Origin: Candidatus Gottesmanbacteria bacterium
GTDB taxonomy: Bacteria > Patescibacteriota > Microgenomatia > UBA10105 > UBA927
Assembly: GCA_030679255.1 (NCBI GenBank)
Contig: JAUXTO010000025.1
Span: 8,719-72,718 of the forward strand
Direction of reading: 5' to 3'
DNA: 64,000 nt
Shown here: positions 4,101-64,000 of the stretch, piece by piece
Numbering within the stretch: position 1 is the first letter of the stretch
How the letters are laid out: each line of letters begins with the position of its first letter
Program-made: the position numbers and the translations under genes
Notes under the pieces: model-generated
Database searches by the model: none
What the model was told of the DNA's origin: nothing
What the model saw: the letters and a program-made list of their open reading frames with translations, nothing else

Positions 4101-4979
4101 ATGACAGCAATAAACAACAAAAATCTAAAATTAGCGATGCAAAAAGAGGGGCGGCTGACCGAAGAAACGCTTGAATTTTTGCGTAAATCCGGCCTGGAAT
4201 TTGAAAGCTACAACCAAAGGCTTTTCTCGACATGCAGAAATTTTCCATTAGAGATCCTCTACGTGCGAGATGATGACATACCAGACTATGTAGCCTCCGG
4301 AACGGTTGATCTGGGGATCCTCGGACAAAATATACTCTCTGAGGAGAGACCGAAGGTAAAAAAACTCCTCAATTTACGTTTTGGGTTTTGTACGCTTTTT
4401 ATTGCGGTCCCAAAGGAATCACAGATCAATAATCTCTCCGATCTCAATGGCAAAACCATCGCGACAACCTACCCTAACTCTACCCAAAATTTTCTTCTAA
4501 AGAATAAAGTTGAAGCAAAAATAGTAACAATAAGCGGATCTGTGGAAATCACCCCTGCCCTTGGCGTAGCCGATGCCATATCCGACCTTCTCTCTACCGG
4601 AAGCACCCTGGCTCTGAATGATTTGCGGCCACTGACTAAAGTCTACGACTCCGAAGCCATACTCATCGCAAATGAAGAAAGTGTCGCATCCAAAAATAAA
4701 ATGATGCTCCTTAATAATCTTCTGACGAGATTTAAAGGAGTACTCTCAGCAAAAAATTACAAATATATACTGATGAGCGCTCCCGAAGAAAAACTCACGA
4801 AAATTAAAAAAATGCTGCCATCTCTTATTTTCCCCACGCTCGCAACGATTTCAAAAAATGGTTTTACGACGCTTCAAACCGTTATAAAAGAAGATGTACT
4901 TTGGGACATAACAGGCAAACTCAAAGCCGCAGGTATATCGCAAATCTTCGTATTGCCGATAGAAAAAATTATTTCGTAA
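4101..4979 (+). CDS. hisG: ATP phosphoribosyltransferase, long form
   Basis: 292 aa with HisG motifs (LAMQKEGRL, DIPDYVASGTVDLGILGQN) and the C-terminal regulatory domain. A strong SD sits upstream. Confidence 0.9.
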   Translation: MTAINNKNLKLAMQKEGRLTEETLEFLRKSGLEFESYNQRLFSTCRNFPLEILYVRDDDIPDYVASGTVDLGILGQNILSEERPKVKKLLNLRFGFCTLFIAVPKESQINNLSDLNGKTIATTYPNSTQNFLLKNKVEAKIVTISGSVEITPALGVADAISDLLSTGSTLALNDLRPLTKVYDSEAILIANEESVASKNKMMLLNNLLTRFKGVLSAKNYKYILMSAPEEKLTKIKKMLPSLIFPTLATISKNGFTTLQTVIKEDVLWDITGKLKAAGISQIFVLPIEKIIS

Positions 4980-4982
4980 AAT

Positions 4983-6280
4983 ATATGAACATCTACTCAC
5001 TCAGCGCCATACCGAACACTGTATATGACCGTGTCATGAAGCGATCATATGGATCCAGAGCGGACATACTCCCTCGCGTTCAACAAATTTTTGAAGATGT
5101 AAGAAAATACAAAGACCGTGCACTTTTCCAAGAATATGAAAAGCGATTCGGCTTAACTCCTTCATTTTCTTTAAAAATATCACGCAAGGAAATAAAAAGT
5201 GCGTATAAGAGGGTTGACTCGTCTCTGGTTCAAGCGCTCCAACAGATGATAAAAAATATTACCAAAGTAACTACGGCTCAGATGAAGTCAAAAACTGAGA
5301 CTGCAGTATCTACGGAAAAAGGGGTCAGAGCATGGCGGGAATGGAGAGCAATAGAAAAGGTTGGCCTCTATATTCCCGGCGGAAAAGCTGTGTATCCATC
5401 TTCAGTGCTCATGAGTGGGATACCTGCGATGGTTGCCGGATGCAAAGAAGTCATTCTCTGCTCCCCTCCTTCGGATAAAGGAAAAATTCCAGCGATTATC
5501 CTCGTCGCGGCAGATATGATCGGTATTTCAAATATTTACTCCGTAGGCGGCGCTTACGCGATTGCGGCGCTGACGATTGGCACAGAAAGCATACCAAAAG
5601 TCGACAAAATTATTGGTGCGGGAAATGCGCTTGTCACGACCGCTAAAATACTAGCACTTGAAACCACAAGTATCGATATGCCGGCAGGACCGTCTGAGGT
5701 ATTCATCATCGCAGACGAATCCGCAAATCCTTCCTACATCGCTTCGGATCTTCTGGCAGACGGCGAACACGGAGATGACTCGGCGTGCGTCCTCGTCACA
5801 ACATCATCTGATGTCGCCAAGAGCACGATACTTGAAATAGAAAAACAATTAATACACTTGCCTACTGCATCTCGTGTTCGCGAATCGCTAAGAAAGTACG
5901 GACTCGTTGCCGTTGTCAATTCTCTAGAGCAAGCAATCATTTTTGCAAATGACTACGCACCGGAGCACTTGGAAATTATGACAAAAAATCCAGTCGCGGT
6001 ATCTAAAAAAATTAATAATGCTGGCTCTGTTTTTATCGGAAACTATACATCCAAATCGGCAGGAGACTATGCTACCGGTGCGAATCACATATTGCCGACC
6101 GGTGGCATGGCAAAATCATATCCTCCTCTAGGTGTAGACGCGTTTGGGAAATGGATGCAGATCCAAGAATGCACAAAACAGGGCTTAAAAAATATTCAAA
6201 AAACAATTGAAGCCATCGCGACAGTGGAACAATTGCCAGCACACAAAAATTCTACATCAATACGATTTCAAAGTATATGA
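4983..6280 (+). CDS. hisD: Histidinol dehydrogenase
   Basis: HisD family motifs (GGKAVYPSSVLMSGIPAMVAGC, NHILPTGG). Start chosen at MNIYSLS just after the hisG stop. Confidence 0.9.
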
Positions 6281-10427: not shown

Positions 10428-11627
10428 ATGGACCTACTAAAAAATATAGACGCCCTTCTCATTACTAACCCGACGAATATCCGGTATCTCACTGGATTCG
10501 TCGGTGCGGCGCCGGAGGAGAGGGAAGCATACTGCTTGCTTACCAACTCTCAAACGTATCTCTTCATTAATGCGCTTTATACTGAATACGCAAATACACT
10601 TGTTTCACCATCTAAGCAAGGCAGTAATAATCCAATAATCCAATTCTCAAATAATCCAATAAAAATAGTCAAAATTTCCCGCGGGGAACCTTTTGCAAAA
10701 AAACTTGGTGATGTTCTGAAAAGGTCTCACCTTGCCAAACCGCAAGGTGAGACCTTAAAAGGAATTCGCCTCGGATTTGAAGAGAGCAACTTGACCGTCG
10801 CAGAATTCGAAAAATTAAAAAAAGAATTGCCCGGCATCACCCTTGTCCCAACACAAAACAGAATTGAAGAACTCCGGATGATCAAGCGCGATGATGAAAT
10901 CGAAAACATCCGACAGGCTGCAAAGATTACGGATCAGTGTTTTACCTATCTTACCACCATACTAAAACCTCGTGTTACTGAACTTGAAATCGCCTGGAAA
11001 ATCGAGTCCTTCATTCGCTCCCGCGGCGCGGGTCTTGCCTTCTCCCCCATCGTCGCGTTTGGCTCAAACACCTCGCAACCGCACTATTCACCAAAATCTA
11101 GCCTTAAAAGGTCTCACCTTTTAAGGCTAAAAAATCAAGATATTGTGCTACTGGATTTCGGCGCGAAGATTAACGGCTACTGCAGCGACATGACCCGCAT
11201 GGTGTTTATTGGCAAACCCGAGGCTGAATGGGTGAACGCTTACGAAACGGTTTCGAGAGCGCAAACCATGGCTCTCGAGTATCTAGCCTCAAGGCCTGGC
11301 CTTGAGGCTACGGGTGATAAAGTCGATCAGATCGCACGGGATATCATTGAAAATGCAGGGTTCCCTACCTATCCCCACTCTCTGGGTCACGGGGTGGGAT
11401 TGGATATTCATGAAGCACCACGATTGAGAACCAATCCTTCAATAAATTCAGAACAACCAGTTACATCCCGCGCTTCGCAAAGACTCATGCCCGGCATGGT
11501 CGTCACGGTTGAGCCAGGAATATATATCGAAGGACAGTATGGCGTACGCCTCGAGGATTTGATACTCTTGAAAGAAGACGGGATTGAATTACTATCAAAA
11601 TCAAATAAACATATCACTATACTTTAG
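10428..11627 (+). CDS. M24 family Xaa-Pro aminopeptidase carrying three in-frame palindromic-element insertions
   Basis: M24 motifs (DFGAKINGYCSDMTR, HSLGHGVGLDIHE, VEPGIY). Palindromic elements are embedded at 10717-10762, 11098-11130 and 11283-11310; one of them encodes KSSLKRSHLLRLKNQ. Confidence 0.8.
   Translation: MDLLKNIDALLITNPTNIRYLTGFVGAAPEEREAYCLLTNSQTYLFINALYTEYANTLVSPSKQGSNNPIIQFSNNPIKIVKISRGEPFAKKLGDVLKRSHLAKPQGETLKGIRLGFEESNLTVAEFEKLKKELPGITLVPTQNRIEELRMIKRDDEIENIRQAAKITDQCFTYLTTILKPRVTELEIAWKIESFIRSRGAGLAFSPIVAFGSNTSQPHYSPKSSLKRSHLLRLKNQDIVLLDFGAKINGYCSDMTRMVFIGKPEAEWVNAYETVSRAQTMALEYLASRPGLEATGDKVDQIARDIIENAGFPTYPHSLGHGVGLDIHEAPRLRTNPSINSEQPVTSRASQRLMPGMVVTVEPGIYIEGQYGVRLEDLILLKEDGIELLSKSNKHITIL
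10717..10762. repeat. REP-like family 1 derivative (extended palindrome around ggtctcacc / ggtgagacc)
   Basis: tgaaaaggtctcaccttg-ccaaaccg-caaggtgagaccttaaaagg. It lies inside pepP and is in frame. Confidence 0.7.
11098..11130. repeat. REP-like family 1 element
   Basis: ctagccttaaaagg-tctca-ccttttaaggctaa. In frame in pepP (SLKRSHLLRL). Confidence 0.8.
11283..11310. repeat. Family 1b palindrome (same outer arms, centre aaggcctggcctt)
   Basis: ctagcctcaaggcc-t-ggccttgaggcta. The same 13-bp core appears twice at 2587-2644. Confidence 0.7.
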
Positions 11628-15148: not shown

Positions 15149-15862
15149 ATGAATAATGATATCACGATTCTCGAACTCCGTCCCGGACCGGGTGGTGATG
15201 AAGCCAAGATATGGGCCGGCGATCTCATGCGCATGTACACGCGCTACGGGACTATCATGGGCTGGAAAGTAGAGAGCCTTGATGATTTAGTTATCCGCAT
15301 ACGGGGAACAGGCGTATTTACTAAACTCCAATATGAGGCCGGCACCCACCGCGTCCAACGAATCCCGTCTACAGAGCGCCATGGCCGGATCCATACCTCT
15401 ACGGCAACCGTTGCCGTCCTTCCCGAAATTCCGGAAAATGAAGTCACCATCCGCAACGACGACCTCGAGTGGGATTTTTTCCGCTCAGGGGGCAAAGGAG
15501 GACAAAACGTCAATAAGGTGAGTTCGGCCGTCCGACTTCGGCATAAACCCTCAGGCATCGTCGTGGCCTGCCAAACCGAGCGGGACCAATTTCAAAACCG
15601 CAGCGTAGCCCTCTCGATGCTGCGGGCCAAACTCTGGGAACGGGAACTCCTTGCCCGAGAGCAGACGATGACGGAGCAACGAAGTGTGATTGGTCGCGGC
15701 ATGCGCGCGGAAAAAATCCGCACCTATAATTATCCTCAAAACCGCGTCACCGACCACCGCATAAACAAATCCTGGCACAATCTGGAAGATGTTATGAGTG
15801 GAAAAATGCAAAAGATTTCCGAAGTGCTCTCTACTCTCCTTGATTCCCCAACGTCACCGTAA
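15149..15862 (+). CDS. prfA: Class-I peptide chain release factor (RF1-like, PST and GGQ motifs) lacking N-terminal domain 1
   Basis: It aligns to E. coli RF1 from about residue 105 onward. RIPSTERHGRIHTSTATVAVLPE carries the PxT-type motif and SGGKGGQNVNKV the GGQ. No N-terminal domain-1 coding sequence lies upstream. The 5' end abuts the hairpin element at 15003-15148. Confidence 0.75.
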   Translation: MNNDITILELRPGPGGDEAKIWAGDLMRMYTRYGTIMGWKVESLDDLVIRIRGTGVFTKLQYEAGTHRVQRIPSTERHGRIHTSTATVAVLPEIPENEVTIRNDDLEWDFFRSGGKGGQNVNKVSSAVRLRHKPSGIVVACQTERDQFQNRSVALSMLRAKLWERELLAREQTMTEQRSVIGRGMRAEKIRTYNYPQNRVTDHRINKSWHNLEDVMSGKMQKISEVLSTLLDSPTSP

Positions 15863-17033
15863 TATCTTTTTCCTTCTCATCACGCCAGACAGTAAGCTTG
15901 ACGGAATCACCGACTTTTTTCTTACTAATCGATTTTGCCAAATCATTTTTATCATCAAGTTTTGTGCCATCAATTTTGGTTATGACATCTTCTGCTTTGA
16001 GTCCCGCTTTATCAGCCGGCCCTCCCTTTACCACTTCCTGCACATACGCTCCCTCGGGAATTTCGTTAAGGATCGCCGTTTGCCGAGGAATCATACGGTA
16101 CTGCACGCCAAGAAATGGGCGGTTAAACTGACCCGTCGCGTTAAAATTGGCAAGCGCTTCTTTGACCACGTTGATGGGTAGGGCAAATCCGATATTTTGT
16201 CCCTGCGCTGACACCGCCGTATTGACCCCCACCACCTGGCCCGCAGAATTAAGGAGTGGTCCGCCGGAATTACCGGGATTGATCGCCGCGTCCGTCTGGA
16301 TGACGTTATCGAGGCGTTCTGCCGATCCCTCAAAGGGACTGCCTGCGTCTATCCCCCGCCCCACGCCGGAAATGACACCGGTCGTCACGGTATGACGAAA
16401 CTCGCCCAAGGCAGTGCCAATTGCAATCGCCATTTGACCAACTTTTATTTTATCCGAATCCCCCAATTCCACAGTCGGCAGCTCTCGCCCTGATCCGTCA
16501 GCTGACGGAGAAGGGTCAATTTTTAGAATTGCCAAGTCATTACTCGGATCGCGGTAAATCTTCTTAATTTCATAGGTTTTGTCATCTTTCGTGATTACGC
16601 GGTACGTCGCGTCGGTCATCTCGACCACGTGTTTATTGGTGACGATAAGGCCATCGCTCCCCACAATGAAACCTGATCCAATATCCTGCTCAAATTTTTG
16701 GGTTTTACCGGGCCGCCGCTGAAACGGACTAAAGGGATCAAAAGGATTAAACTCGAGGATATCACCGATCCGCCTGTTTTGCGTGATGCCGATTGTGACA
16801 ACGGCAGGAGAGACTTTATCCACGACATCAATGACCACCGATTCCTCCGTCACGACTTTGACTTTTTCATCTTCTGGCAGTGTGATCGTTTTGGAAGTTG
16901 AAAATTGTGGCAGTTTGATGGAAAGATACTTTTCTAAAAACTTCCAGTTGAGGCCAAACTGGCCGGAGCTCACCACGGCACCGCTGATCAACGCCAACGC
17001 TGCTACACTGATAAAAAATTTCTGTAACTTCAT
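15831..17033 (-). CDS. htrA: HtrA/DegP family serine protease (trypsin-like domain plus PDZ)
   Basis: GSGFIVGSDGLIVTNKHVV and TDAAINPGNSGGPLLN, followed by a PDZ domain. An in-frame 16-bp palindrome insertion at 16486-16517 encodes DPSPSADGSG. Confidence 0.9.
   Translation of the reverse strand: MKLQKFFISVAALALISGAVVSSGQFGLNWKFLEKYLSIKLPQFSTSKTITLPEDEKVKVVTEESVVIDVVDKVSPAVVTIGITQNRRIGDILEFNPFDPFSPFQRRPGKTQKFEQDIGSGFIVGSDGLIVTNKHVVEMTDATYRVITKDDKTYEIKKIYRDPSNDLAILKIDPSPSADGSGRELPTVELGDSDKIKVGQMAIAIGTALGEFRHTVTTGVISGVGRGIDAGSPFEGSAERLDNVIQTDAAINPGNSGGPLLNSAGQVVGVNTAVSAQGQNIGFALPINVVKEALANFNATGQFNRPFLGVQYRMIPRQTAILNEIPEGAYVQEVVKGGPADKAGLKAEDVITKIDGTKLDDKNDLAKSISKKKVGDSVKLTVWRDEKEKDITVTLGNQGE
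16486..16517. repeat. Family 4 palindromic insertion (tccgtcagctgacgga), copy in htrA
   Basis: cgccctgatccgtcagctgacggagaagggtc encodes DPSPSADGSG. Confidence 0.75.
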
Positions 17034-19651: not shown

Positions 19652-20815
19652 TCAATTGCCAACTTTAAACTCCACCACATCCCCATCTTGCATCACATAT
19701 TCTTTTCCTTCACTGCGCACTTTTCCTGCCTCTCTCGCCCCTTTCCAACCTTTAAGCGCCACAAGGTCCGTATACGCGACGACATCGGCCTTGATAAACT
19801 TCTTTTCAAAATCCGTATGGATGACGCCGGCCGCCTGAGGAGCCTTCATCCCACGGGTAATCGTCCACGCGCGTGCCTCGATAGGTCCACAAGTTAAAAA
19901 AGAGATGAGACCAAGCATTTCGTATGCTTTGGCGATCAACCGGTCTAAGCCGGACGCTTCCAAACCCAATTCTTTGAGATACGCCTTTTGCTCATCTTCA
20001 GAGAGACTGGCCAACTCCGTCTCTACCTTGGCACTGATGCCTAGTATGTCATTCCGGCCATCCATGTCATTCCGGGCTTGACCCGGAATCCAGTCTTTTT
20101 TTTCGCTGGATCCCGGCCCGCTTCGACGTAGCGAGGCGAGCGCGGAGGCCGGGACGACAGAATCCGTTGTCAATTGTTGTTCGCTGACATTCGCCACGTA
20201 AAGAACGGGCTTCATAGTCAAAAGCTGCAAATCCCGAACGGCTTTCTGTTCTTCCGGTGGGAATTCGAGTGATGATGCTGGTTTACCGTTATTTAAGATC
20301 TGAAAAAGCCGTTCTAATAGTTCTGGTGGCAGTGCGCTACCATCCTTTTGCCGTTTCCCATTATCTTTTTGCCGTACTATCGTTTGCAAATCAGCCAATA
20401 TGAGTTCGGTCTCAATAATCCCGCGGTCCCGCTCAGGGTTGACGTCCCCGGCTACGTGGACGACGGAAGGATCATCAAAATAACGGATGACGTTGACGAC
20501 CAAGTCAACCTCACGGATATGAGAGAGAAATTTGTTCCCCAACCCTTCACCTTCTGAAGCACCTTTGACGAGTCCGGCAATATCCACAAATTGTACGGTC
20601 GCGTGGGTGAGCGGTGGCTTCACATGCTCTTCTCTCTCCACGAGCGTTGCTAGTGTTTCTAACCTTTTGTCCGGCACGGGAACCACACCGATATTTGGTT
20701 CTATCGTGGTAAACGGGTAATTTGCCGCCTCCGCGACCTGCTTTTTGAGGAGCGCATTAAACAGCGTACTTTTTCCAGCATTAGGAAGACCAACGATCCC
20801 TACTTTTAAATTCAT
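19652..20815 (-). CDS. ychF: Ribosome-binding ATPase YchF carrying an in-frame multi-hairpin element insertion
   Basis: [22 protein letters not shown]... with a TGS-like C-terminus. The insertion at 20048-20157 encodes ...SSEKKDWIPGQARNDMDG.... Confidence 0.85.
   Translation of the reverse strand: MNLKVGIVGLPNAGKSTLFNALLKKQVAEAANYPFTTIEPNIGVVPVPDKRLETLATLVEREEHVKPPLTHATVQFVDIAGLVKGASEGEGLGNKFLSHIREVDLVVNVIRYFDDPSVVHVAGDVNPERDRGIIETELILADLQTIVRQKDNGKRQKDGSALPPELLERLFQILNNGKPASSLEFPPEEQKAVRDLQLLTMKPVLYVANVSEQQLTTDSVVPASALASLRRSGPGSSEKKDWIPGQARNDMDGRNDILGISAKVETELASLSEDEQKAYLKELGLEASGLDRLIAKAYEMLGLISFLTCGPIEARAWTITRGMKAPQAAGVIHTDFEKKFIKADVVAYTDLVALKGWKGAREAGKVRSEGKEYVMQDGDVVEFKVGN
20048..20157. 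repeat. Family 2 multi-hairpin element (TIR gtcatYcc...gggaYgac), in frame in ychF
   Basis: gtcattccgggcttgacccggaatccag...ggatcccggcc...ggccgggacgac. It carries a partial internal duplication. Confidence 0.75.
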
Positions 20816-31090: not shown

Positions 31091-31409
31091 ACTCCCAACC
31101 TACGACTTTTTATAAATCTTGTCAATTTTCCTCCGGTCGAGAGTAAATTAGCATGATTTATAAAAGAACTACTACAGGCTTGACAAACTCTCTCTCTCTC
31201 TGTAAAATCCTCACTATAGGTCATACAAGCCCCGCTCTTTGCTGCGGATTTTTTGTTGATCTACCAGTCTTATTTGCACTTTGACAGGTTGCGGAAAGTT
31301 GAGCTCTTTTCAAAGGGCGAAATCCTGAGCTGAACCGAAGGAACGCTCCTCTTCTTTCCATTGGATAGCGTTTTTGGCATGCATTACTCGTGCCTGATAC
31401 GCTATCGCA

Positions 31410-33841: not shown

Positions 33842-33857
33842 AGTATTATTCGTTCAT

Positions 33858-33933
33858 GTCACTCCCGCGAAGGCGGGAGTCCAGAATTTTCTTGAATTGT
33901 TTAACACTGGATCCCCGCGTACGCGGGGATGAC
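33858..33933. repeat. Family 2 multi-hairpin element, intergenic copy in opposite orientation
   Basis: gtcactcccgcgaaggcgggagtccagaattttcttgaat...tggatccccgcgtacgcggggatgac. Confidence 0.75.
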
Positions 33934-33945
33934 AACACTAAATCT

Positions 33946-34257: not shown

Positions 34258-34385
34258 GCACCAAGCATCAAATCACAAATTCCAAACAAATTCCAATATC
34301 AAAATTCTAAATTCTAAACGTTTTGAACATTGGTGCTTAAAACCTTGATATTGTTTGTAATTTGGTGCTTGTGATTTGGTGCTTA
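34258..34385. repeat. Family 3 long imperfect hairpin element, second copy
   Basis: gcaccaagcatcaaatcacaa...ttgatattgtttgtaatttggtgcttgtgatttggtgctt. It shares ttgatattgtttg exactly with the 15003 copy. Confidence 0.7.
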
Positions 34386-35036
34386 ATATTCCCTTCTCCC
34401 TTCCAACGCCCGAGACAAGGTAACTTCATCAGCATACTCGATATCCGCCCCGACCGGCAGACCACGGGCAAGCCGGGTAATATTGAGCTTGGCTGGTGGC
34501 TGACCCGCTTCGCCGGAGCTTGAGCGAGGCGAGTAGCTGATGGCTGAAAGCTGTTTTTGTAAATACATCGCCGTTGCTTCCCCTTCCATGTTCGGGTTCG
34601 TCGCAAGAATAATTTCCTTAATTCCTACGTCCTGAGTCCTCAGTCTTTTCAAAAGGTCCGCAATATAAATCTCGTCCGGTCCGATATTATTGAGTGGATC
34701 AAGCGATCCATGGAGGACATGATACAGGCCTTTATACTTTCCTGTTTTTTCAAACGCTAAGACATCCGTGGGCTGTTCAACAACACATATGATAGATGGA
34801 TCCCGCGTCGCATCGCTACAAATGCTACAAGGATCCGACTCCGCGACATTTTTGCATACTGAACACAAAACGGTGTTTAATCGAAGAGTCCGTAAGTTTT
34901 CCCCAAAACTCTCGAGCTCACTTTGCGGGACATGCAAAAGATAAAACGCAAGCCTCGTCGCCGACTTCGGCCCGATACCGGGCAGCTTTTGAAACGATTC
35001 GATGAGACGCGAGAGAGCTTTGGGTAGAAGTGCCAT
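34383..35036 (-). CDS. recR: Recombination protein RecR
   Basis: An HhH N-terminus (LPGIGPKSATRLAFYLL), a C4 zinc finger (CSVC...CSICSD) and a Toprim domain. Confidence 0.9.
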   Translation of the reverse strand: MALLPKALSRLIESFQKLPGIGPKSATRLAFYLLHVPQSELESFGENLRTLRLNTVLCSVCKNVAESDPCSICSDATRDPSIICVVEQPTDVLAFEKTGKYKGLYHVLHGSLDPLNNIGPDEIYIADLLKRLRTQDVGIKEIILATNPNMEGEATAMYLQKQLSAISYSPRSSSGEAGQPPAKLNITRLARGLPVGADIEYADEVTLSRALEGRREY

Positions 35037-35965: not shown

Positions 35966-36682
35966 TTATCCTAACAAAGTTAGTACCCGCTCGTCCATGA
36001 GGGAATCCACGACCAGATCGGCGCCTTCCTTAACCAAATCATCATGCCCATGAGTCATTCCAGTTGCGACCCCGATGGTTGTCGCTCCCACATGCTTCCC
36101 GCATCGGATATCGTAAATTGTATCTCCAATGATGACCACGTCGCGCGGCACGAAGGATTGGGCAAAATACTTCGTGGCTTTGGCAACGGCGTGACGGGCG
36201 AGCTCATTCCTGTCGTTTACATCATCAGCAAATGCACCAAAAGAAAAATACTCCCGCATGCCGGCGTGATCGAGCTTAAACCATGCGTTGATTTCAATGT
36301 TTCCCGTGATAAGTCCCAAGGCATGATCGTTCTTCGTATACAGAAGTTGCACGAGCTCAAGCGCTGCAGGATGCGCATGGTACAGTATTTCACCGCTTTC
36401 TACAGACGCTTTTAGCGTGTCATGGAACACCTGTCGGGCTTTGGAAAAGTGAGCATCAAATACTGTGTCATCCGTGACCCCTGCATCGCGGGCAATCGAG
36501 CGCAATACATTCCGATCGACCCCTCCGTTGTAGCGGTGTGTTTCGATTTGAAAATCTACTTCTTTGCCGTATACCTCTTTTATCACCTTGCCGATGCGGT
36601 GTTTCCAGTGTTGGACACTGTTACTCGTCGTCTGGACGAGCGTCCCGTCGATGTCAAAGAGGATAAGTTTGTTCTTCTTCAT
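35966..36682 (-). CDS. HAD family hydrolase
   Basis: LILFDIDGTLV is motif I. Start chosen at MKKNK. Confidence 0.7.
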   Translation of the reverse strand: MKKNKLILFDIDGTLVQTTSNSVQHWKHRIGKVIKEVYGKEVDFQIETHRYNGGVDRNVLRSIARDAGVTDDTVFDAHFSKARQVFHDTLKASVESGEILYHAHPAALELVQLLYTKNDHALGLITGNIEINAWFKLDHAGMREYFSFGAFADDVNDRNELARHAVAKATKYFAQSFVPRDVVIIGDTIYDIRCGKHVGATTIGVATGMTHGHDDLVKEGADLVVDSLMDERVLTLLG

Positions 36683-37896
36683 GGGTGGTACGCGTTGAGT
36701 GCTTTTGTGAGGATATCGATGCATCGGATGATATCGGGGATGGATAACACGTAGGCAATACGGACTTCGTTTTTTCCTTTACCAGGTGTTGCATAAAACC
36801 CCGCAGCGGGAGCCACCATGACGGTTTCGGCCTGTCCTGATCCGTCAGCTGACGGAGAAGGATCTCGAAAATCCGTAAGGAGCCACTGACAAAAATGCTC
36901 GGCATCCTCAACCGGCAGTCCCACGATTGCGTAAAATGCGCCCTCAGGTTTGGGGATGGTGACACCCGGAATATGACGCAATCCTTCGTATAATACGTCC
37001 CGACGTTTTTCATATTCATCATGGACTTCTTGAAAGTACGACACCGGCACCTTCGTGAGTTTAGCAGCCATCAACTGGTCGATGAGCCCCGCCGAAAGCC
37101 TACCTTGCCCGATCCGTAAGACGCCTGCCATAATATCTTGATTGAGCGAGATGAGCGCTCCGATTCGCGCTCCACAGACGCTGTAGCGCTTCGACAGACT
37201 ATCCAGAACTATCGCGTGCTCAGGAATTTCCTGCATAAAGGAAAGAAGGGACACCTGACGGGCGCCATCATAGGTAAATTCCCGATATACTTCATCGGAG
37301 AGAAGAAACAGTCCATGCTTTTTTGCGAGCGCCACGAGTGTTTCTATTTCGCTTTTTGAATACACGGTGCCCGTCGGATTGTTGGGATTGCAATAAAGAA
37401 TAGCTTTCGTCTTTTTCGTAATCTTGCCCTCTATCACCGATTGCGCCGGCAAATGAAATCCGTCAGATAAATTCGTTGGGATTGGTACTAATTGCACACC
37501 ATTGACCGCCGCGTACGTATTGTAGTTGGCATAAAACGGCTCAAAGACGATGATCTCGTCACCCGGATCGGCAACGGCAAAAAGCGCCCAGGAAATTGCC
37601 TCGGATCCTCCGATGGTCACCTGGAGATGTGATGTATCGAGAAATATCGCCCCAAGTCCGTGGTAATAAATTTTTAATGATTCTAAAAGACTCGGCTCTC
37701 CCTGGGACTGACTATACCCCACGGGATTACGGTCCCAATCCCGTAGAACCTGGAGCATCACCTCCGGCGTTTTGATGTCCGGGTCGCCAATATTAAAATG
37801 GTACACCTTCACCCCTGCTTTCTTTGCCGCCGTGGCGTACGGCACGAGTTTACGGATAGGAGAGGCGGGAACGCTCGATAGTCTTTGAGATGTCAT
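36679..37896 (-). CDS. Class I/II (AspAT-like) PLP-dependent aminotransferase with an in-frame palindrome insertion
   Basis: NPNNPTG and SLSKRYSVCGARIG motifs. The insertion at 36831-36866 encodes DPSPSADGSG, the same peptide as in htrA. Confidence 0.8.
   Translation of the reverse strand: MTSQRLSSVPASPIRKLVPYATAAKKAGVKVYHFNIGDPDIKTPEVMLQVLRDWDRNPVGYSQSQGEPSLLESLKIYYHGLGAIFLDTSHLQVTIGGSEAISWALFAVADPGDEIIVFEPFYANYNTYAAVNGVQLVPIPTNLSDGFHLPAQSVIEGKITKKTKAILYCNPNNPTGTVYSKSEIETLVALAKKHGLFLLSDEVYREFTYDGARQVSLLSFMQEIPEHAIVLDSLSKRYSVCGARIGALISLNQDIMAGVLRIGQGRLSAGLIDQLMAAKLTKVPVSYFQEVHDEYEKRRDVLYEGLRHIPGVTIPKPEGAFYAIVGLPVEDAEHFCQWLLTDFRDPSPSADGSGQAETVMVAPAAGFYATPGKGKNEVRIAYVLSIPDIIRCIDILTKALNAYHP
36831..36866. 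repeat. Family 4 palindromic insertion, copy in the aminotransferase gene
   Basis: cctgtcctgatccgtcagctgacggagaaggatctc encodes the same DPSPSADGSG peptide. Confidence 0.75.
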
Positions 37897-38198
37897 AGAT
37901 AGGAATACTAGTGTAGTCGATTCCGGCGATTTTTTCACGCGCTATGTTATACTCGATTTTCATATGTCCCCTGAAATTTCGTGTAAAGATTGTATTCACT
38001 TTGATCGTAGGGACTCGGATACAAATTTTGTTTCCCCTGATGGTCGAAAAGGATTTTGCAGAATAAACAACGGATTATTATTAGGAGAAAGGGATGAAGA
38101 TAGTATTTGTCCTCCTCATCAACAGCTGTATTTTATTTCTGTAAAATCAATATTTTCAAACACGACGCCAGAATAAATGCGGTAATGTTTAATGGCAA

Positions 38199-49118: not shown

Positions 49119-50270
49119 TTATGAAAGGAATTGTGTGACAATTGCAAGTACTTCTTGTTTTTGTACTTCTGTAACCACCACTTCCACGATTCCCTCCTCG
49201 GGCCCGCCTGCAACGCTATGCGTACCCGTCTGCAGCGATGCAGCAGCTTCGGGCAGGGCATTGCGGGCAGGCTGACCATAATAAAGAATACTTCCCAATG
49301 GAGCGTATTGGATGACCGGTAGGACTAAGAGGTCTTCTTCGCCGTTCACGATGATGGCGTGATGCGTATCTCCTGGTCTTACTTTTCTGGCAAGCGCTGC
49401 TTGTATTGCCACCACGGCATCACGACTAATAAACCCCGGTCCACTATGCAAAAATTTAGCCTTAAAAGGTGAGACCTTTTGAGGCTGAAGTCTGTTTACT
49501 ATTTCCGGGAATGGTTTCCGGCCTACTTGGCCATCAATGACGGCCAAGCACGGCATGACGCCGAGATCCAACACGGTCTTCGTCGATAAATCCCCGACCG
49601 TTATGACGAAATCGTGTTCGTGTGACCGTATCGAGACGTCTATCGCTTTTCCACGGAGAATCTTCCCCATCGGCTTGCCGAGCGCGGCGCGCAGCCTCTC
49701 CGGCATGATGAGTCTCCCGTCCCCGTCAATCTCTCCCTTTCGCAGCCGTGTCGAAGAAATCGGCTTTCCATCCTCGGCCGGTACGATCGGCACTTCGATG
49801 AGCGCGAGCGGTGACAGGGCCAGGCCCTGTCTGAGACCATTGATACGCTCTCCGGTCGAACGGTTCTCATATGTGACAATGAGCGCAGTGAGATCCCTCA
49901 TGCTCGCCGCAGGTTCGTGAGGATCAGAGATCGGGATAATGGTCGTCCGATTGAAATATCGTCGCTTGTGCAACCATGCTATGAGATAGCATTTCCTTTC
50001 TTTATATGTGCTTATTTTTTTTTGAATTTGCACATTGGGATTTGTTTGGTCATTGGGATTTGGAAATTGGGATTTATACTTTACAACAAACTCGTCTGTT
50101 GTCAGCCCGATAGTCACCCGCTCGCCTACCCGAAATGCCTCAGATAGAATTGATCGGTGCCCCGCGTGGAGCCCGTCAAACGTCCCGGCGACGAAAATGT
50201 GGTGATATAAATAATCTTTTAGAAGTTTATTATTAAGGATAGTCACAGAGGAATAATACAATATGATCAC
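49119..50270 (-). CDS. Fusion: archaeal-type phosphopantetheine adenylyltransferase-like (HxGH) N-domain plus a DUF359/dephospho-CoA kinase-like C-domain
   Basis: The N-domain has FVAGTFDGLHAGHRSIL...IGLTTDEFV. The C-domain has VITVGDLSTKTVLDLGVMPCLAVIDGQVGRKPF. It hosts a 10-bp repeat block at 50032-50075 and a REP-like element at 49447-49478. Confidence 0.5.
   Translation of the reverse strand: MIILYYSSVTILNNKLLKDYLYHHIFVAGTFDGLHAGHRSILSEAFRVGERVTIGLTTDEFVVKYKSQFPNPNDQTNPNVQIQKKISTYKERKCYLIAWLHKRRYFNRTTIIPISDPHEPAASMRDLTALIVTYENRSTGERINGLRQGLALSPLALIEVPIVPAEDGKPISSTRLRKGEIDGDGRLIMPERLRAALGKPMGKILRGKAIDVSIRSHEHDFVITVGDLSTKTVLDLGVMPCLAVIDGQVGRKPFPEIVNRLQPQKVSPFKAKFLHSGPGFISRDAVVAIQAALARKVRPGDTHHAIIVNGEEDLLVLPVIQYAPLGSILYYGQPARNALPEAAASLQTGTHSVAGGPEEGIVEVVVTEVQKQEVLAIVTQFLS
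49447..49478. repeat. REP-like family 1 element
   Basis: ttagccttaaaaggtgagaccttttgaggct. In frame in the PPAT/DPCK-like gene (QPQKVSPFKA). Confidence 0.8.
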
Positions 50271-52473: not shown

Positions 52474-53635
52474 CCCCTTTTGGAATCCCCTGCCCGAGTA
52501 CGAGAAAATTGCGACCGAAGTGCATACGGCAATCGCCCGCGTCCTCTCCTCGGGCACGCTCATCCTGGGGCCGGAAGTCGCAGCGTTTGAAACATCCTTT
52601 GCGCAATACATTGGCTGCCGGTATGGTATTGGGGTGGGTAATGGGACGGATGCCATCATTCTCGCCCTCAAAGCGCTCGGAGTGGGTCAGGATGACGAAG
52701 TGATTACCGCCGCCAATACAGCTATCCCCACCGTCGCGGCAATCATGGCGGTTGGTGCAGTACCCAAGCTCGTTGACGTACTCCCTGATTCCCTGCTTAT
52801 GGATCCCGCCAAACTTCAAGGCGCCATTACAAAGCGTACCCGCGCAATAATCCCCGTCCATCTCTACGGACAATCGTGCGATATGGACACGATTATGAAG
52901 ATCGCAACATCCAAAAAGGTATTCGTCATCGAAGACTGCGCGCAGGCGACGGGGGCCGAGTATAAGTCAAAAGTCTCCGCCAAAGGCGGACCAGCCTATG
53001 GCCGGAAAAGTCGAAAGTCAAAAGTTGGTTCGATGGGGAGTATCGCAACATTTTCGTTTTATCCGACCAAAATCATCGGCTGCTACGGCGATGGGGGGAT
53101 GATTACGACCAATAATCCCGCTCTTGCCAAGCGGGTACGAAGTTTACGCATGTATGGCACCGAGGGAACGTACAACGCTATAATCGAAGGAGGAATTAAT
53201 TCACGACTCGATGAACTCCAGGCTGCCATCCTATCTGTCAAATTGAAAAACATCAAACGCTGGATCAAGGAGCGGCAACGTCTCGCCCATCGCTACAATC
53301 AGGGTCTCAAGAGTACACCACTTATTCTTCCGTCTCAGCCTCAAAAGGTCTCACCTTTTGAGGCTAATTCCCATGTTTTTCACCTCTATATCATCCGACA
53401 CACGAAACGCATAGAAATTCAAAAATATTTAAGAATGCACGGTATCGGCACGGCTATCCACTACCCGGTCCCCATCCACCTTATGCCCGCGTACAGCAAA
53501 TTAGGATACGAAAAAGGAGATTTTCCCGTCGCCGAAGGGGCGTGTCATTCTGTGCTTTCGCTTCCGCTCTATCCGGGGCTGACTGACGACGATCAGGATC
53601 GTATCATCAATGCGCTTCGCGCGTACTTCAAATAA
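52463..53635 (+). CDS. DegT/DnrJ/EryC1/StrS family sugar aminotransferase with an in-frame REP-like insertion
   Basis: IPFWNP...GNGTDAI...SFYPTKIIGCYGDGGMITT. The element at 53336-53367 encodes SQPQKVSPFEAN. Confidence 0.85.
   Translation: MKSIPFWNPLPEYEKIATEVHTAIARVLSSGTLILGPEVAAFETSFAQYIGCRYGIGVGNGTDAIILALKALGVGQDDEVITAANTAIPTVAAIMAVGAVPKLVDVLPDSLLMDPAKLQGAITKRTRAIIPVHLYGQSCDMDTIMKIATSKKVFVIEDCAQATGAEYKSKVSAKGGPAYGRKSRKSKVGSMGSIATFSFYPTKIIGCYGDGGMITTNNPALAKRVRSLRMYGTEGTYNAIIEGGINSRLDELQAAILSVKLKNIKRWIKERQRLAHRYNQGLKSTPLILPSQPQKVSPFEANSHVFHLYIIRHTKRIEIQKYLRMHGIGTAIHYPVPIHLMPAYSKLGYEKGDFPVAEGACHSVLSLPLYPGLTDDDQDRIINALRAYFK
53336..53367. repeat. REP-like family 1 element
   Basis: cagcctcaaaaggtctcaccttttgaggctaa is a perfect palindrome. 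In frame in the DegT gene. Confidence 0.8.
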
Positions 53636-55069: not shown

Positions 55070-55105
55070 CATAAATCTAGCCTTAAAAGGTCTCACCTTT
55101 TGAGG

Positions 55106-55843
55106 CTAATCTTCATCAATTTCTGCTTTTGCAATATACCGAATACTTTCAACTTCAAAATCATAATCCTGTATCTCGACAAACTCTTTATATGACTGTA
55201 ATCCCGTTTTCGCTTTAGAGAAATAAGAAAGAATTGTCTTTGGCTTCACCCACTCTTGATGAATCTCTCCCAGGTAATTGGGATACGATGACGGTTGTAA
55301 CCGCAATATTTGAGATCGCTTTTTTGGATCTAGCCTTAAAAGGTGAGACCTTTTGAGGCTAAACGGATTACGGTGGATATATCGGGATACATGAAGAAGC
55401 TGCGCGTCATTAGTAATCAAGACTGCCTTATACGTTCCTTGAAAGACAGACCCTACTCGCTTGTGCCGGCTGTTTTCATACATCGTAAACCGAGTCATCA
55501 CAGATTGTACAAATTCACTCATGTCTGACTCCCCTTTTTGCTGGAGAAGAAAATGGAAATGATTGGGCATCAGGCAATAGGCCAAAAGATCAATCTTACC
55601 AGTAAAATTCTTTAGTCGAAGCTCTCGTGCTGCTACCCCACGTTCTTTATAGGAAAGGGATTCCTCTGACGCCATCTCCCGAAGTTTTTTTTCATCTTTT
55701 GGACGTAATGCGGTTGCAATATAAGAAAGGAATACTCGATAATCCTGATCATCAATGAATATATCCGCTTTATTCACTCCTCGATTATAGACATGATACA
55801 CCCCATCAGAGACGTACGATTTGATGATATTTTTGGCAGGCAT
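55106..55843 (-). CDS. REP-associated tyrosine transposase (RAYT; IS200/IS605-like HuH Y1 transposase), with a REP copy inserted near the catalytic Tyr
   Basis: YHVYNRGVNKADIF, HuH MPNHFHFLL, and RYIHRNP (the Y motif). SLKRSHLLRL is inserted immediately after NPF, via the element at 55330-55362. Confidence 0.8.
   Translation of the reverse strand: MPAKNIIKSYVSDGVYHVYNRGVNKADIFIDDQDYRVFLSYIATALRPKDEKKLREMASEESLSYKERGVAARELRLKNFTGKIDLLAYCLMPNHFHFLLQQKGESDMSEFVQSVMTRFTMYENSRHKRVGSVFQGTYKAVLITNDAQLLHVSRYIHRNPFSLKRSHLLRLDPKKRSQILRLQPSSYPNYLGEIHQEWVKPKTILSYFSKAKTGLQSYKEFVEIQDYDFEVESIRYIAKAEIDED
55330..55362. repeat. REP-like family 1 element inside the RAYT gene
   Basis: ctagccttaaaaggtgagaccttttgaggctaa. 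Confidence 0.8.
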
Positions 55844-55906
55844 GCCATCAGTATGCGCGAAGTGATAAAAAAATACAATAGCCTTAAAAGGTGAGACCTT
55901 TTGAGG

Positions 55907-57031
55907 CTAAGTCTTCAAAACCTTCTGATAGACTTTTTCGTAACCCTCGACCATTTTCTCTACGGTAAAGTTTTCCTCGACATGCCTCCGGCAAGCGGCG
56001 CGGTCGATTTCTCCGATGCGTTTGACGGCTTCGACCAGCCCCTCTACCCCACGTTTTTTGATGACCCACTTCCCGTCTTTATTGGTAGTATTGGTAGTAT
56101 TTGTCTGATTTGTAGTATTGGTAGTATTATCATTTGGTTCTACGATAAACCCCGTCACTCCGTCCTTGACGATTTCAGAAACTGACCCCCGGTTGTAGGC
56201 GATGACCGGCGTCCCGCACGCCATGGCCTCAATCATCACGAGCCCAAACGGCTCTTCCCAGTGGATGGGGAATAGGAACGCTTTCGCATTACCTAAAAAA
56301 TCATACTTCAACGGACCAATCATTCGATCTAATAGACGAATCATCGCGCCATCAACTTCAGCGTTTATGCGTTTCAGATATGCTTCCTGGCCCTTTTCCT
56401 CAAAACCAACAAGCGTCAGCACGTCTCCAGTTTTTTTTGCCGTCATGATTGCATCAATTGCCCCTTTATTTTCCGAAAAACGTCCCATCCAGGCTACATA
56501 CGATGGTTTCTGTGGATGGAAAACAAATGGAACGTTTAAAGCGTCAATACCGTTGTAAACTACGCTCGAGAAATGGATGTAGGGCAACGCTCGTTTGGCG
56601 CCTTCGGATAATGCTATAAAAAATTCATGAGGAAATCGTTCGAATACTTTCTGTTCCCGCATCGCAAAATTAGCGCCGTGTGTGGTTGAAACGACGGGTG
56701 GACGAACCGCATGGATATAGGGTAATAATACGTGCTCTATATGACTATGTACGATATCAAACTGACCGAGCTCCGGAACTATTTTTTCTGCATACGCATG
56801 CTGAAGCGCAACACTTTCACGATCAAATAGTGATCGACCGGATTCTTTGAGCGATGGGCCACTAAAGCGCAGCAATACACGCGGAAACACTGACTTATCC
56901 GGAGCAAACACCGTAACCGTGTGGCCTCTCGCCTTGAGCCCCAAGGTGACATCCCGCACCACGGCTTTTATACCGATTGCCTTCTCAGAATCAAACGCAG
57001 ACCAATTGGGTAAAATTTGCGCAACGTTCAT
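55907..57031 (-). CDS. GT4 family glycosyltransferase
   Basis: EEPFGLVMIEAMACGTPVIAYNRGSVSEIV. An internal TNTTNQTNTTNTTN stretch comes from ttggtagtat repeats at 56081-56129. Confidence 0.85.
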   Translation of the reverse strand: MNVAQILPNWSAFDSEKAIGIKAVVRDVTLGLKARGHTVTVFAPDKSVFPRVLLRFSGPSLKESGRSLFDRESVALQHAYAEKIVPELGQFDIVHSHIEHVLLPYIHAVRPPVVSTTHGANFAMREQKVFERFPHEFFIALSEGAKRALPYIHFSSVVYNGIDALNVPFVFHPQKPSYVAWMGRFSENKGAIDAIMTAKKTGDVLTLVGFEEKGQEAYLKRINAEVDGAMIRLLDRMIGPLKYDFLGNAKAFLFPIHWEEPFGLVMIEAMACGTPVIAYNRGSVSEIVKDGVTGFIVEPNDNTTNTTNQTNTTNTTNKDGKWVIKKRGVEGLVEAVKRIGEIDRAACRRHVEENFTVEKMVEGYEKVYQKVLKT

Positions 57032-63491: not shown

Positions 63492-64000
63492 TTATCGTTT
63501 ACTGATGCTCCTCTTATAAAGTTCAATATTCTCAAGAGCGACCCCGGTGCCGCGTACGACACAAAGAAGTGCGTCTTCGGCAACATGACAGGGCACCCCC
63601 GTCATTTGAGTAAGAAGTTTATCCATATTGCGCAGTGTAGACGTTCCTCCGGCCATAACGATACCTTTATCGATGATGTCTGCCGCAAGCTCCGGCGGTG
63701 TTTCCTCAAGCGCGGATTTGACGGCCCCAACGATGAGCAGAAGTACCGGCATGATGGCCTCCGTGACCTCGCCGCGTGTGAGCTCAATCATCCGCGGCAT
63801 ACCGGTGTAGAGGTCCCGCCCCCGGACTTCAATGCTATCCTGATTTGTCATCCCAGGCTTGACCTGGGATCCATCTTTCTGGACCCCAGCCTTCGCTGGG
63901 GTGACATCGGGATTGCCCATCGCATCCCCAATCGTCACTTTGATCGTCTCACTCATCCGTTCGCCGATAATCAGATTAAATTTTTTCTTTACAAAACCGG
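63492..64000 (-). CDS. mreB: Rod shape-determining protein MreB, C-terminal part. Partial: the gene continues past the right edge of the window.
   Basis: EVRGRDLYTGMPRMIELT...IVMAGGTSTLRNMDKLLTQMTGVPCHVAEDALLCVVRGTG. The element at 63847-63905 inserts in-frame and encodes VTPAKAGVQKDGSQVKPGMT. Confidence 0.85.
   Translation of the reverse strand, partial: GFVKKKFNLIIGERMSETIKVTIGDAMGNPDVTPAKAGVQKDGSQVKPGMTNQDSIEVRGRDLYTGMPRMIELTRGEVTEAIMPVLLLIVGAVKSALEETPPELAADIIDKGIVMAGGTSTLRNMDKLLTQMTGVPCHVAEDALLCVVRGTGVALENIELYKRSISKR
63847..63905. repeat. Family 2 multi-hairpin element, in frame in mreB
   Basis: gtcatcccaggcttgacctgggatccatctttctggaccccagccttcgctggggtgac. Confidence 0.8.

Follow-up and report, generated by a model that had tools for sequence, protein, structure and literature searches.

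The stretch of DNA analysed here, hereafter the window, comprises 64,000 nucleotides (nt) of the 75,078-bp contig JAUXTO010000025.1 (assembly GCA_030679255.1, forward-strand positions 8,719 to 72,718) from a Candidatus Gottesmanbacteria bacterium of the Patescibacteriota. Two of its genes, one encoding an HtrA/DegP-like serine protease and the other an aminotransferase, contain in their reading frames one copy each of a small hairpin whose apex is a 16-nt palindrome. This palindrome stands at both sites in place of the 7-nt loop found in related genes. The host genes and the parts of the two copies are as follows.

15831 to 17033, minus strand: host gene 1, an HtrA/DegP-like serine protease of 400 aa with Trypsin_2 and PDZ domains; the insert is residues 173-182
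16488 to 16515, plus strand: copy 1, the 28-nt two-tier hairpin CCCT-GA-TCCGTC-AGCT-GACGGA-GA-AGGG, inside the HtrA-like gene
16488 to 16517, minus strand: DPSPSADGSG codons of copy 1
16494 to 16509: apex of copy 1, the perfect 16-nt palindrome TCCGTCAGCTGACGGA, in place of the 7-nt loop GCCTGCC of the closest relatives
36679 to 37938, minus strand: host gene 2, a pyridoxal phosphate-dependent class I/II aminotransferase (Aminotran_1_2); the insert is residues 345-354 of the 405-aa product
36835 to 36862, plus strand: copy 2, the 28-nt two-tier hairpin TCCT-GA-TCCGTC-AGCT-GACGGA-GA-AGGA, inside the aminotransferase gene
36835 to 36864, minus strand: DPSPSADGSG codons of copy 2
36841 to 36856: apex of copy 2, the perfect 16-nt palindrome, in place of the ortholog loop GCTTGCC (ACTTGCC in ortholog P0122)
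36833 to 36836 and 36862 to 36866: flanks of copy 2, a TGTC tag that overlaps the stem and an ATCTC tail

The two copies share 26 identical bases (CCTGATCCGTCAGCTGACGGAGAAGG, at 16489-16514 and 36836-36861; repeat family D14 of the window), and the perfect palindrome occurs exactly twice in the window. Allowing up to 3 mismatches gives a total of 3 matches, whereas 0.24 would be expected and no shuffle out of 100 gave as many; the additional one, at 38353, has 3 mismatches and is apparently fortuitous. The palindrome can be extended imperfectly to 28 nt (arms 16488-16501/16502-16515 and 36835-36848/36849-36862, 86% complementary), with an outermost pair that differs between the copies (C..G in the first, T..A in the second) and is complementary in each. 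The sequence CGTCA lies on both strands of the palindrome (TC-CGTCAG/CTGACG-GA). Folded as single-stranded DNA (ssDNA), both copies on either strand form an outer stem of 4 bp and an inner stem of 6 bp, separated by a 2x2 GA/GA internal loop and capped by an AGCT loop, at -7.3 to -8.5 kcal/mol and z about -1.7 to -2.5 (-8.5 kcal/mol and z -2.3 for the plus strand of copy 1; -7.6 kcal/mol for copy 2). A search of the window and of other Gottesmanbacteria loci for more diverged hairpins of the TCCG..CGGA type found none beyond the two known copies and one in another Gottesmanbacteria genome (L119).

An initial annotation of this DNA had described a perfect 16-bp palindrome lying in frame on the minus strand of two otherwise conserved enzymes and encoding DPSPSADGSG in both. 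Palindrome, frame and peptide are all borne out in the open reading frames (ORFs) 15831-17033 and 36679-37938, as is the identity of the hosts as a Trypsin_2 and PDZ protease and an Aminotran_1_2 protein. The positions given for the repeat, 16486 and 36831, do mark sequence that is present, and are offset by 4-6 nt; the 25-mer reported (ctgatccgtcagctgacggagaagg) starts at 16490 and 36837.

Both host proteins are essential-type enzymes. The aminotransferase ORF spans 419 aa from a GTG start, and the deposited product of 405 aa places the start near 37896. In AlphaFold models both inserts fall in coil, at fold-compatible surface or loop sites of the kind known for Rickettsia palindromic elements (RPEs). 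In HtrA it comes after strand 167-172, and the predicted local distance difference test score (pLDDT) drops below 50 at residues 178-181 in what is a moderate model (mean pLDDT 69); the aminotransferase insert lies between helix 332-341 and strand 357-360 (mean pLDDT 91). The encoded peptide is probably a tolerated surface loop without a function of its own.

Loop replacement at two in-frame sites

A comparison with 120 HtrA and 120 aminotransferase orthologs shows what occupied these sites in related proteins. The decapeptide, which the initial annotation had suggested looking for in just such alignments, is not carried by the orthologs of either enzyme. In HtrA, 109 of the 120 orthologs have three residues (typically ASG) where the window protein reads PSPSADGSGRE, while the closest relatives (88-93% identical) read PSAGSGRE and a few more distant proteins have PSAGSGQA-like segments. 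The aminotransferase site is empty in 79 of 120 orthologs (FRD-NN-ETVM) and holds D-PSASSGQA-E or close variants in 41; D-PSPSADGSGQA-E is found, among the 120, in the window protein only.

At the DNA level, read in gene sense, the window aminotransferase has GAT CCT TC[T CCG TCA GCT GAC GGA] TCA GGA CAG, two filled orthologs (P0122 and P0146) have GAT CCT TC[G GCA AGY] TCA GGA CAR, and an empty one (P0123) has GAT^CAA. The window HtrA gene reads GAC CCT TC[T CCG TCA GCT GAC GGA] TCA GGG CGA GAG, the bracket being TCCGTCAGCTGACGGA, and that of its relative P0003 GAC CCT TC[G GCA GGC] TCA GGG CGA GAG. The alignments thus show, at exactly both sites in relatives, an 18-nt in-frame hairpin core that by this comparison was present before the tip changed. 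On the opposite strand this older core is TCCTGA-GCTTGCC-GAAGG in the aminotransferase and CCCTGA-GCCTGCC-GAAGG in HtrA, and its coding strand encodes PS-xx-SGQ. To judge from the same orthologs, the window lineage has had the 7-nt loop replaced in both genes by the same 16-nt palindrome, at a gain of 9 nt and three residues, and in both genes the outer, site-specific bases were retained.

The palindrome does not contain the 7-nt loop as a subsequence, so the change was a substitution, and simple insertion of the palindrome into the resident loop is ruled out. The picture of a single unit of roughly 30 bp inserted into each gene likewise gives way to that of an older hairpin with a new loop. 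Insert lengths of 18 and 27 nt are both multiples of three, so that the reading frame is retained throughout. The change of tip turned a weak hairpin (only -1.4 to -4.5 kcal/mol in the short-loop versions) into a strong, two-tier one (about -8 kcal/mol). By parsimony, we take the short loop to be the ancestral state, since most filled orthologs carry it.

The presence of the resident hairpin is clearly patchy, a pattern that would fit recurrent gain and loss, or allelic exchange. The filled P0122 and the empty P0123 are 91% identical outside the site, and what separates them there is a clean 18-nt indel whose flanks are not duplicated. The filled or empty state changes at least 29 times for the aminotransferase and at least 9 times for HtrA on a neighbour-joining tree, counts that are inflated by tree error, and in only 80 of 120 cases are a protein and its nearest neighbour in the same state, compared with a random expectation of 55%. 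That the hairpin is present or absent among close relatives fits the earlier suggestion of a mobile or recombinogenic element. The apex varies as well. Another Gottesmanbacteria HtrA (P0056, locus L135) has CCCCGA-GCCGCCAGCCGGCGGA-GAGGG at the same site, a homologous 16-nt apex that differs from that of the window by a compensatory T:A to C:G change, and the aminotransferase ortholog P0222 (L136) has a second hairpin nested inside the loop of the first. Together, these two cases and the loop replacement mark the apex of the resident hairpin as a hot spot for change. The two orthologous in-frame sites, at which the hairpin is absent, short-looped, tipped with 16 nt or nested among close relatives, therefore amount to a natural experiment that is informative on both the direction and the mechanism of change.

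The palindromic module in other genomes

Species-representative genomes (596 Gb, both strands) were scanned for exact matches to the 20-mer GATCCGTCAGCTGACGGAGA, hereafter the module; the figures given below are among the matches listed. The module is present in at least 118 stretches from about nine phyla, where about one would be expected by chance, and together with the metagenome matches described below this takes the repeat well beyond the two copies first noticed. By record title, at least 56 stretches come from Bacteroidota, including cultured Draconibacterium, Maribellus and Seramator, at least 23 from Patescibacteria, at least 11 from Acidobacteriota, at least 7 each from Neomarinimicrobiota and from Balneolaceae/Rhodohalobacter, at least 5 from Gammaproteobacteria, at least 4 from Verrucomicrobiota/Kiritimatiellae, and at least 1 each from KSB1, Chlorobiota and unclassified bacteria. 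Single genomes can hold several copies, with at least 8 stretches each in a Vicingus metagenome-assembled genome (MAG; JAVHRO01) and an Acidobacteria MAG (QHZO01), and at least 5 in a Bacteroidales MAG (JAQUBO01). Two stretches, from Agrobacterium and Ilumatobacteraceae, are probable chance coding matches. In the former (Agrobacterium leguminum, L054, around 838-857), 27 nt match copy 1 (CCTGATCCGTCAGCTGACGGAGAAGGG) within a 609-aa open frame encoding ...RLIRQLTEKGLKALKATDEDL..., and the 7 extra matching bases are curious; given the coding context RLIRQLTEKGL, it was rejected as a true copy and judged to be the one match expected by chance.

Elsewhere the module forms the apex of longer hairpins, whose outer stem is variable and covarying: among 105 distinct copies, 67% have a complementary first flanking pair (CG 30, TA 28, GC 12), a share that falls to 37% on shuffling. 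The commonest context is TGTCAT-stem-module-stem-ATCTC. A GTCAT head and an ATC tail occur together in 40 of the 105 distinct copies, and GTC[AG]T is found at most 12 nt upstream in 43 of the 105 cross-phylum copies. A metagenome scan with the window 26-mer returned 10 matches, nine of which read TGTCAT-CCTGATCCGTCAGCTGACGGAGAAGG-ATCTC, and full-length relatives read TGTCATCCTGATCCGTCAGCTGACGGAGAAGGATCTC. A canonical short-loop copy and the palindrome variant occur together on one contig (L133). Other hairpins of the same class in these loci keep a GA...GA bracket around a variable inner part, which in some is itself a small hairpin, for example TCCCGAGTAATCGGGA; partial tandem duplications in L036 and L084 have their junction at CGTC. 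No exact match to the 20-mer was found in a viral contig collection, so that carriage by phages receives no support. An apex that is identical letter for letter in distant phyla can be taken as a sign of horizontal spread or, alternatively, of a recognition site under strong constraint.

In the other Gottesmanbacteria MAG mentioned above (L119, 6688-6722), the 20-mer is embedded in CGTCGTCCTGATCC...GGAGAGAGGATCA between rpsR and a CtpA-like protease gene, with its tail overlapping the rpsR stop codon. A Prolixibacteraceae contig (L038) combines a tandem array of palindrome-bearing hairpins with two Acido-Lenti-1 matches (3-47 and 1720-1764; 39 bits, gathering score 37).

Copies inside genes are the minority. 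Of 121 copies in other genomes, only 17 fall within open frames of 150 aa or more, several of them N-terminal or spurious. Nearly all clear mid-gene copies are from Patescibacteria, where they occur in MsrA, a class I aldolase, ArgRS and a fragment with a class II aminoacyl-tRNA synthetase anticodon-binding domain; DprA and GrpE copies are on metagenome contigs (L128 and L133), and one mid-gene copy is in a MacB-like permease of Thermoanaerobaculia. Four of the six frames through the module are open, and all four are used across genomes (DPSADG, SPSADG, IRQLTE and LRQLTD). In the frame used in the window, a full-length head would read ...SG-stop (GGA TGA C), as it does at the C-terminus of an ORF in L130; both window copies have three bases (CAT) fewer than the full-length form, which removes this stop codon. 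Because most copies elsewhere are intergenic, the distribution suggests that in compact genomes the element is tolerant of coding contexts and does not select for them. The initial annotation had offered both possibilities, and the first is favoured here.

A further clue comes from neighbouring genes. Single-domain Pfam GIY-YIG genes of 83-107 aa lie at most 100 nt from the module in three Bacteroidota loci (L110, L015 and L016). L015 comes from Maribellus luteus XSD2 (NZ_QWGR01000005.1, near position 397,000), with its GIY-YIG gene at 4907-5227 of the locus. In L015 and L016, which are orthologous, one side of the GIY-YIG gene bears GTCATTTCGA-AGGAGGTACGACT-GAGAAATC and the other, in inverted orientation, GTCATTTCGAC-[20-mer]-GGAGAAATC. 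The two hairpins of this pair have a common outer stem and different tips, and their arrangement matches the published NTS-ssnA-NTS layout. When all six-frame ORFs of the element-bearing loci were searched by regular expression and then by jackhmmer, four GIY-YIG genes were found, one of them degraded and located on a Magasanikbacteria contig. These GIY-YIG proteins matched no specific NCBIfam family and had no sequence relative in the PDB.

Class membership and competing explanations

Taken as a whole, these observations are probably best explained by a hairpin repeat of the CGTC/TGTC-tagged repetitive extragenic palindrome (REP) class in which the resident loop has been swapped for the 16-nt palindrome. 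CGTC-tagged REPs were defined by Di Nocera, De Gregorio and Rocco (2013), and the class takes in Neisseria dRS3 and the intragenic Rickettsia RPE-4 and RPE-6; its families CGTC-1 to CGTC-4 have 8-9-bp stems, 4-5-nt loops and a CCA tail, and come from 5 phyla, Patescibacteria and Acidobacteriota not among them (PMC3733652). The Neisseria NTS, CGTCATTCCCGCGMAVGCGGGAATCYRG, was placed by Chenal et al. (2025) in a broader set of 'Ssn-related motifs' (SRMs; PMC11893778). Members of the class have in common a (C/T)GTC tag, a hairpin whose stem opens with AT, and an ATC tail (PMC3733652, PMC11893778). The partner enzyme of these repeats, Ssn, was reported only in 2025: small single-domain GIY-YIG proteins of the SsnA type (cd10448) bind the motif hairpins and cut beside them in ssDNA only, not in RNA or double-stranded DNA (dsDNA). 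The ssn genes typically have a motif on both sides, and loop identity is not essential, the loop being extendable without loss of cleavage (PMC11893778).

With NTS and SRMs the full-length form found here, TGTCATCCTGA[16-nt]GAAGGATCTC, shares an oriented hairpin with a (C/T)GTCAT head, a stem opening with AT and an ATC(Y) tail, a dispersal over many phyla, and an association with small single-domain GIY-YIG genes flanked on both sides, which for the module is seen in the Bacteroidota loci L015 and L016. With CGTC REPs it shares the terminal CGTC/TGTC tag, the complementary AT at stem positions 1-2, the short unpaired tail and the presence in several phyla, and CGTC REPs too are known inside genes and sometimes within other palindromes (PMC3733652). 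The initial annotation had counted the repeat as a separate third family of the window. This cannot be maintained, given that full-length TGTCAT-CCTGA-palindrome-GAAGG-ATCTC has the GTCAT...ATC architecture of the other window hairpins and of the CGTC-REP/NTS-SRM class. Differences from the published members are nevertheless plain. The element has a two-tier stem, a GA/GA internal loop and a 16-nt palindromic apex, whereas no conserved apex module is described for CGTC-1 to CGTC-4 (PMC3733652); NTS are rarely intragenic (2%), unlike the in-frame copies of the window, and Patescibacteria are not among the main-text examples (PMC11893778).

The element behaves like a Rickettsia palindromic element, in that a palindromic repeat lies in the reading frame of conserved genes that are not related to one another and whose orthologs do not have it. 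In the secondary accounts of Ogata et al. (2000, 2002) consulted here (PMC10969869, PMC3733652), the Rickettsia elements appear as selfish palindromes of a reduced genome that interrupt unrelated conserved genes without loss of frame, are missing from the orthologs and are located at fold-tolerant places; RPE-4 and RPE-6 are themselves CGTC REPs (PMC3733652). As given in those accounts, RPE-1 measures about 100-150 bp, against 18-39 nt for the inserts here (27-30 nt in the window), and the host phylum is a different one. The insert at a fixed site here also changes its apex over time, and the link in sequence class runs through Di Nocera et al., who equate RPE-4 and RPE-6 with CGTC REPs (PMC3733652). 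The finding extends Rickettsia-style 'protein-coding palindromes' to the Candidate Phyla Radiation (CPR). It also bears on annotation, as such inserts explain short low-complexity loops in CPR proteins (PSASSGQA, DPSPSADGSG, ILLRQLTDQD and others).

Comparison with other mobile repeats is less close. GTAG-tagged REPs and bacterial interspersed mosaic elements, with their REP-associated tyrosine transposases (RAYTs), are likewise short hairpin repeats thought to be mobilised as ssDNA by a small dedicated enzyme encoded between two repeats; here, however, there is no GTAG tag, and the associated gene encodes a GIY-YIG nuclease rather than an IS200/IS605-type tyrosine transposase. No GTAG adjoins either window copy, and RAYT-type transposases were not searched for. 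Miniature inverted-repeat transposable elements have terminal inverted repeats and a target-site duplication, a description that does not suit an 18-nt indel between GAT and CAA with no duplicated flank. To our knowledge, transposition has not been shown for the CGTC class. A literature search for the exact sequences found no match to the palindrome, and the match to GTCATTCCCGCG was the Ssn paper (PMC11893778); no paper in the literature searched paired 'repetitive extragenic palindrome' with the CPR names used. In that literature, both a 16-nt palindromic tip common to many phyla and the replacement of the tip at fixed in-frame sites of CPR proteins seem to be undescribed.

We postulate that the loop was swapped by short-patch copying, perhaps through gene conversion or template switching on an extruded hairpin, and that the donor would have been another genomic copy with the same CCTGA/GAAGG arms. 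Spread, upkeep and turnover of the repeat may then proceed via ssDNA transactions involving an Ssn-type nuclease. The peptide would be a passenger, its frame kept since insert lengths divide by three and frame-breaking versions would be purged.

Several observations weigh against the assignment to the CGTC class and against this mechanism. The published SRM expression matches neither window copy, because the hairpin is too long, although it matches 6 other places in the window, four of which are clear NTS-like hairpins. Copy 1 has neither tag (TCGC instead) nor tail (GTCAAT instead). Copy 2 has a TGTC tag that overlaps the stem and a tail, ATCTCG, that fits the ATCYRG of NTS. Neither copy has the 5' AT that opens the stem, which full-length relatives do have, and in place of a single 8-9-bp stem with a 4-5-nt loop the fold consists of 4 bp, GA/GA, 6 bp and a 4-nt loop. 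In view of the missing SRM match and of the missing tag and tail in copy 1, the window copies are filed as derived members of a new two-tier variant, not as canonical SRMs. About 60% of the cross-phylum copies are in hairpins without a GTCAT head, and several in-gene copies in other Patescibacteria are without any outer stem; the module is hence not strictly tied to the CGTC class. The exact identity across phyla is partly accounted for by the use of an exact-match search. Searches of six-frame ORFs by regular expression and jackhmmer detected no GIY-YIG gene, either in the 64-kb window or across some 45 kb of DNA from other Gottesmanbacteria. Nor did a donor for the postulated conversion come to light, the window showing two copies only, and for the direction of change (short loop first) parsimony is the sole argument.

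Some of these points could also be read in favour of an autonomous mini-element, in which the GA-bracketed 16-nt palindrome homes into or overwrites any resident hairpin apex and is in CGTC/SRM repeats only incidentally. The module does cap unrelated hairpins, including terminator-like stems, CAGCCCC/GGGGCTG stems in Neomarinimicrobiota and long genome-specific repeats in Vicingus and Bacteroidales, and has the GTCAT/ATC context in only 40 of 105 copies. Bare, stemless copies lie in frame in the MsrA, aldolase, ArgRS and anticodon-binding-domain genes of other Patescibacteria, the L015/L016 hairpins around one GIY-YIG gene share an outer stem and differ in apex, and L136 has its nested loop insertion. 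We nevertheless consider such an element unlikely, in that neither a target-site duplication nor a loop remnant is seen, the window loop having been substituted rather than interrupted, and no associated gene other than GIY-YIG was seen. Moreover, similar GA-bracketed inner hairpins such as TCCCGAGTAATCGGGA occur in the same class, which makes the palindrome look like one allele of a variable apex. A bolder extension would be a self-propagating 'hairpin-tip cassette', a GA-bracketed 16-nt palindrome that bears the family tag CGTCA on each strand, writes itself over the loops of hairpins already in place via nicking of the extruded strand and template switching, has moved between at least nine phyla and has been re-copied into fixed in-frame sites of essential Patescibacteria proteins. 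We offer this with little confidence; were it true, it would be a second layer of selfish DNA inside REP-like repeats.

The remaining explanations concern what the hairpin does or whether it is real. A role as a structural or regulatory mRNA element, or as a dsDNA operator for a dimeric DNA-binding protein, would suit the strong symmetric hairpin on both strands and the copy that abuts the rpsR stop codon in another Gottesmanbacteria genome, and many REPs have been argued to act as RNA elements downstream of genes (Di Nocera et al., PMC3733652). Positions in the middle of two enzyme ORFs make a terminator or operator role unlikely, however, and Ssn acts on ssDNA, not on RNA or dsDNA (PMC11893778). 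Rfam, moreover, gave no match in the whole window at gathering thresholds and, in ten element-bearing loci at E <= 1, only the two Acido-Lenti-1 matches of L038, which do not overlap the element; we therefore regard either role as distinctly improbable. It is very improbable that selection acts on the peptide, that is, on the decapeptide or on DPSADG with its D-x-S-x-D-G spacing (for example as a metal-binding surface loop), with DNA identity being secondary. Both window genes do read the element in one and the same peptide frame, and DPSADG[DE] recurs in several Patescibacteria enzymes, but all 26 of 26 nt are identical between unrelated genes while neighbouring synonymous positions differ, and the two flanking codons that do differ keep the outermost hairpin pair complementary. 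The same DNA is also read in four frames (LLRQLTD, IRQLTE, DPSADG and SPSADG) and is mostly non-coding elsewhere. The initial annotation's reading as a DNA element is supported: what recurs is palindromic DNA and not a conserved protein motif. Finally, palindromes are known trouble spots for polymerases and assemblers, and most carriers are MAGs, so one might suspect assembly or library artefacts, such as hairpin or chimera formation at an existing weak hairpin. This we regard as extremely improbable. The HtrA gene with the same 20-mer is present both in the NCBI MAG and in a Logan contig (L001, run SRR13727518), an identical 405-aa aminotransferase is recorded from both NCBI and Logan, and the module occurs in cultured isolates of several laboratories (Draconibacterium, Maribellus and Seramator). 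In addition, each replacement adds exactly 9 nt with the frame intact, and a covarying homolog occupying that HtrA site comes from another sample.

Other hairpin repeats in the window

The window holds further hairpins of the GTCAT or SRM type. An intergenic, oppositely oriented and near-canonical pair, TGTCACTCCCGCGAAGGCGGGAGTCCAG at 33857-33884 (plus strand) and TGTCATCCCCGCGTACGCGGGGATCCAG at 33907-33934 (minus strand), is almost identical to the Neisseria NTS consensus. Three minus-strand ORFs contain hairpin pairs, and the gene names proposed here for them come from reading the sequence. In ORF 19652-20815 (387 aa, a putative YchF/Obg-type GTPase), two adjacent GTCAT-type hairpins at 20048-20093, GTCATTCCGG... 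and TGTCATTCCGGGCTTGACCCGGAATCCAG, are in frame and encode ...KKDWIPGQARNDMDGRNDI...; in ORF 62450-63430 (326 aa, a putative WecG/TagA-type glycosyltransferase), an oppositely oriented pair of SRM-type hairpins at 62668-62696 and 62706-62735 is in frame and encodes LSFRPLSRNPEKKEWIPGQARDDRK. Two back-to-back SRM-type hairpins at 63846-63906, encoding ...GNPDVTPAKAGVQKDGSQVKPGMTNQD..., lie in ORF 63492-63956, putatively in the middle of MreB; a stop codon is implied just upstream of the ATG at 63956, which may mean that a split or a frameshift interrupts the gene at the edge of the window.

Short-loop relatives of the CCTGA...GAAGG hairpin are found at 2613-2629 (CCTGAGCTTGTCGCAGG, which differs from the consensus searched at one position and lies in an open frame of 154 aa) and at 31324-31349 (CCTGAGCTGAACCGAAGG). 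A separate hairpin family, AGCCTTAAAAGGT(CTC/GAG)ACCTTTTGAGGCT, whose loop is inverted in some copies, occurs at 10712-10740, 11100-11128, 49458-49486, 53337-53365, 55079-55107, 55332-55360 and 55880-55908; six of these seven copies are in open frames of 219-410 aa, where they read SLKRSHLLRL or QPQKVSPF[KE]A. Lastly, the 217-aa ORF at 34383-35036 (minus strand), a putative RecR by its sequence whose syntenic counterpart in L122 has RecR Pfam domains, includes the low-complexity segment SPRSSSGEAGQPPAK, which is reminiscent of the peptides that a further hairpin repeat encodes, for example SPRGEAGK in the L128 DprA.

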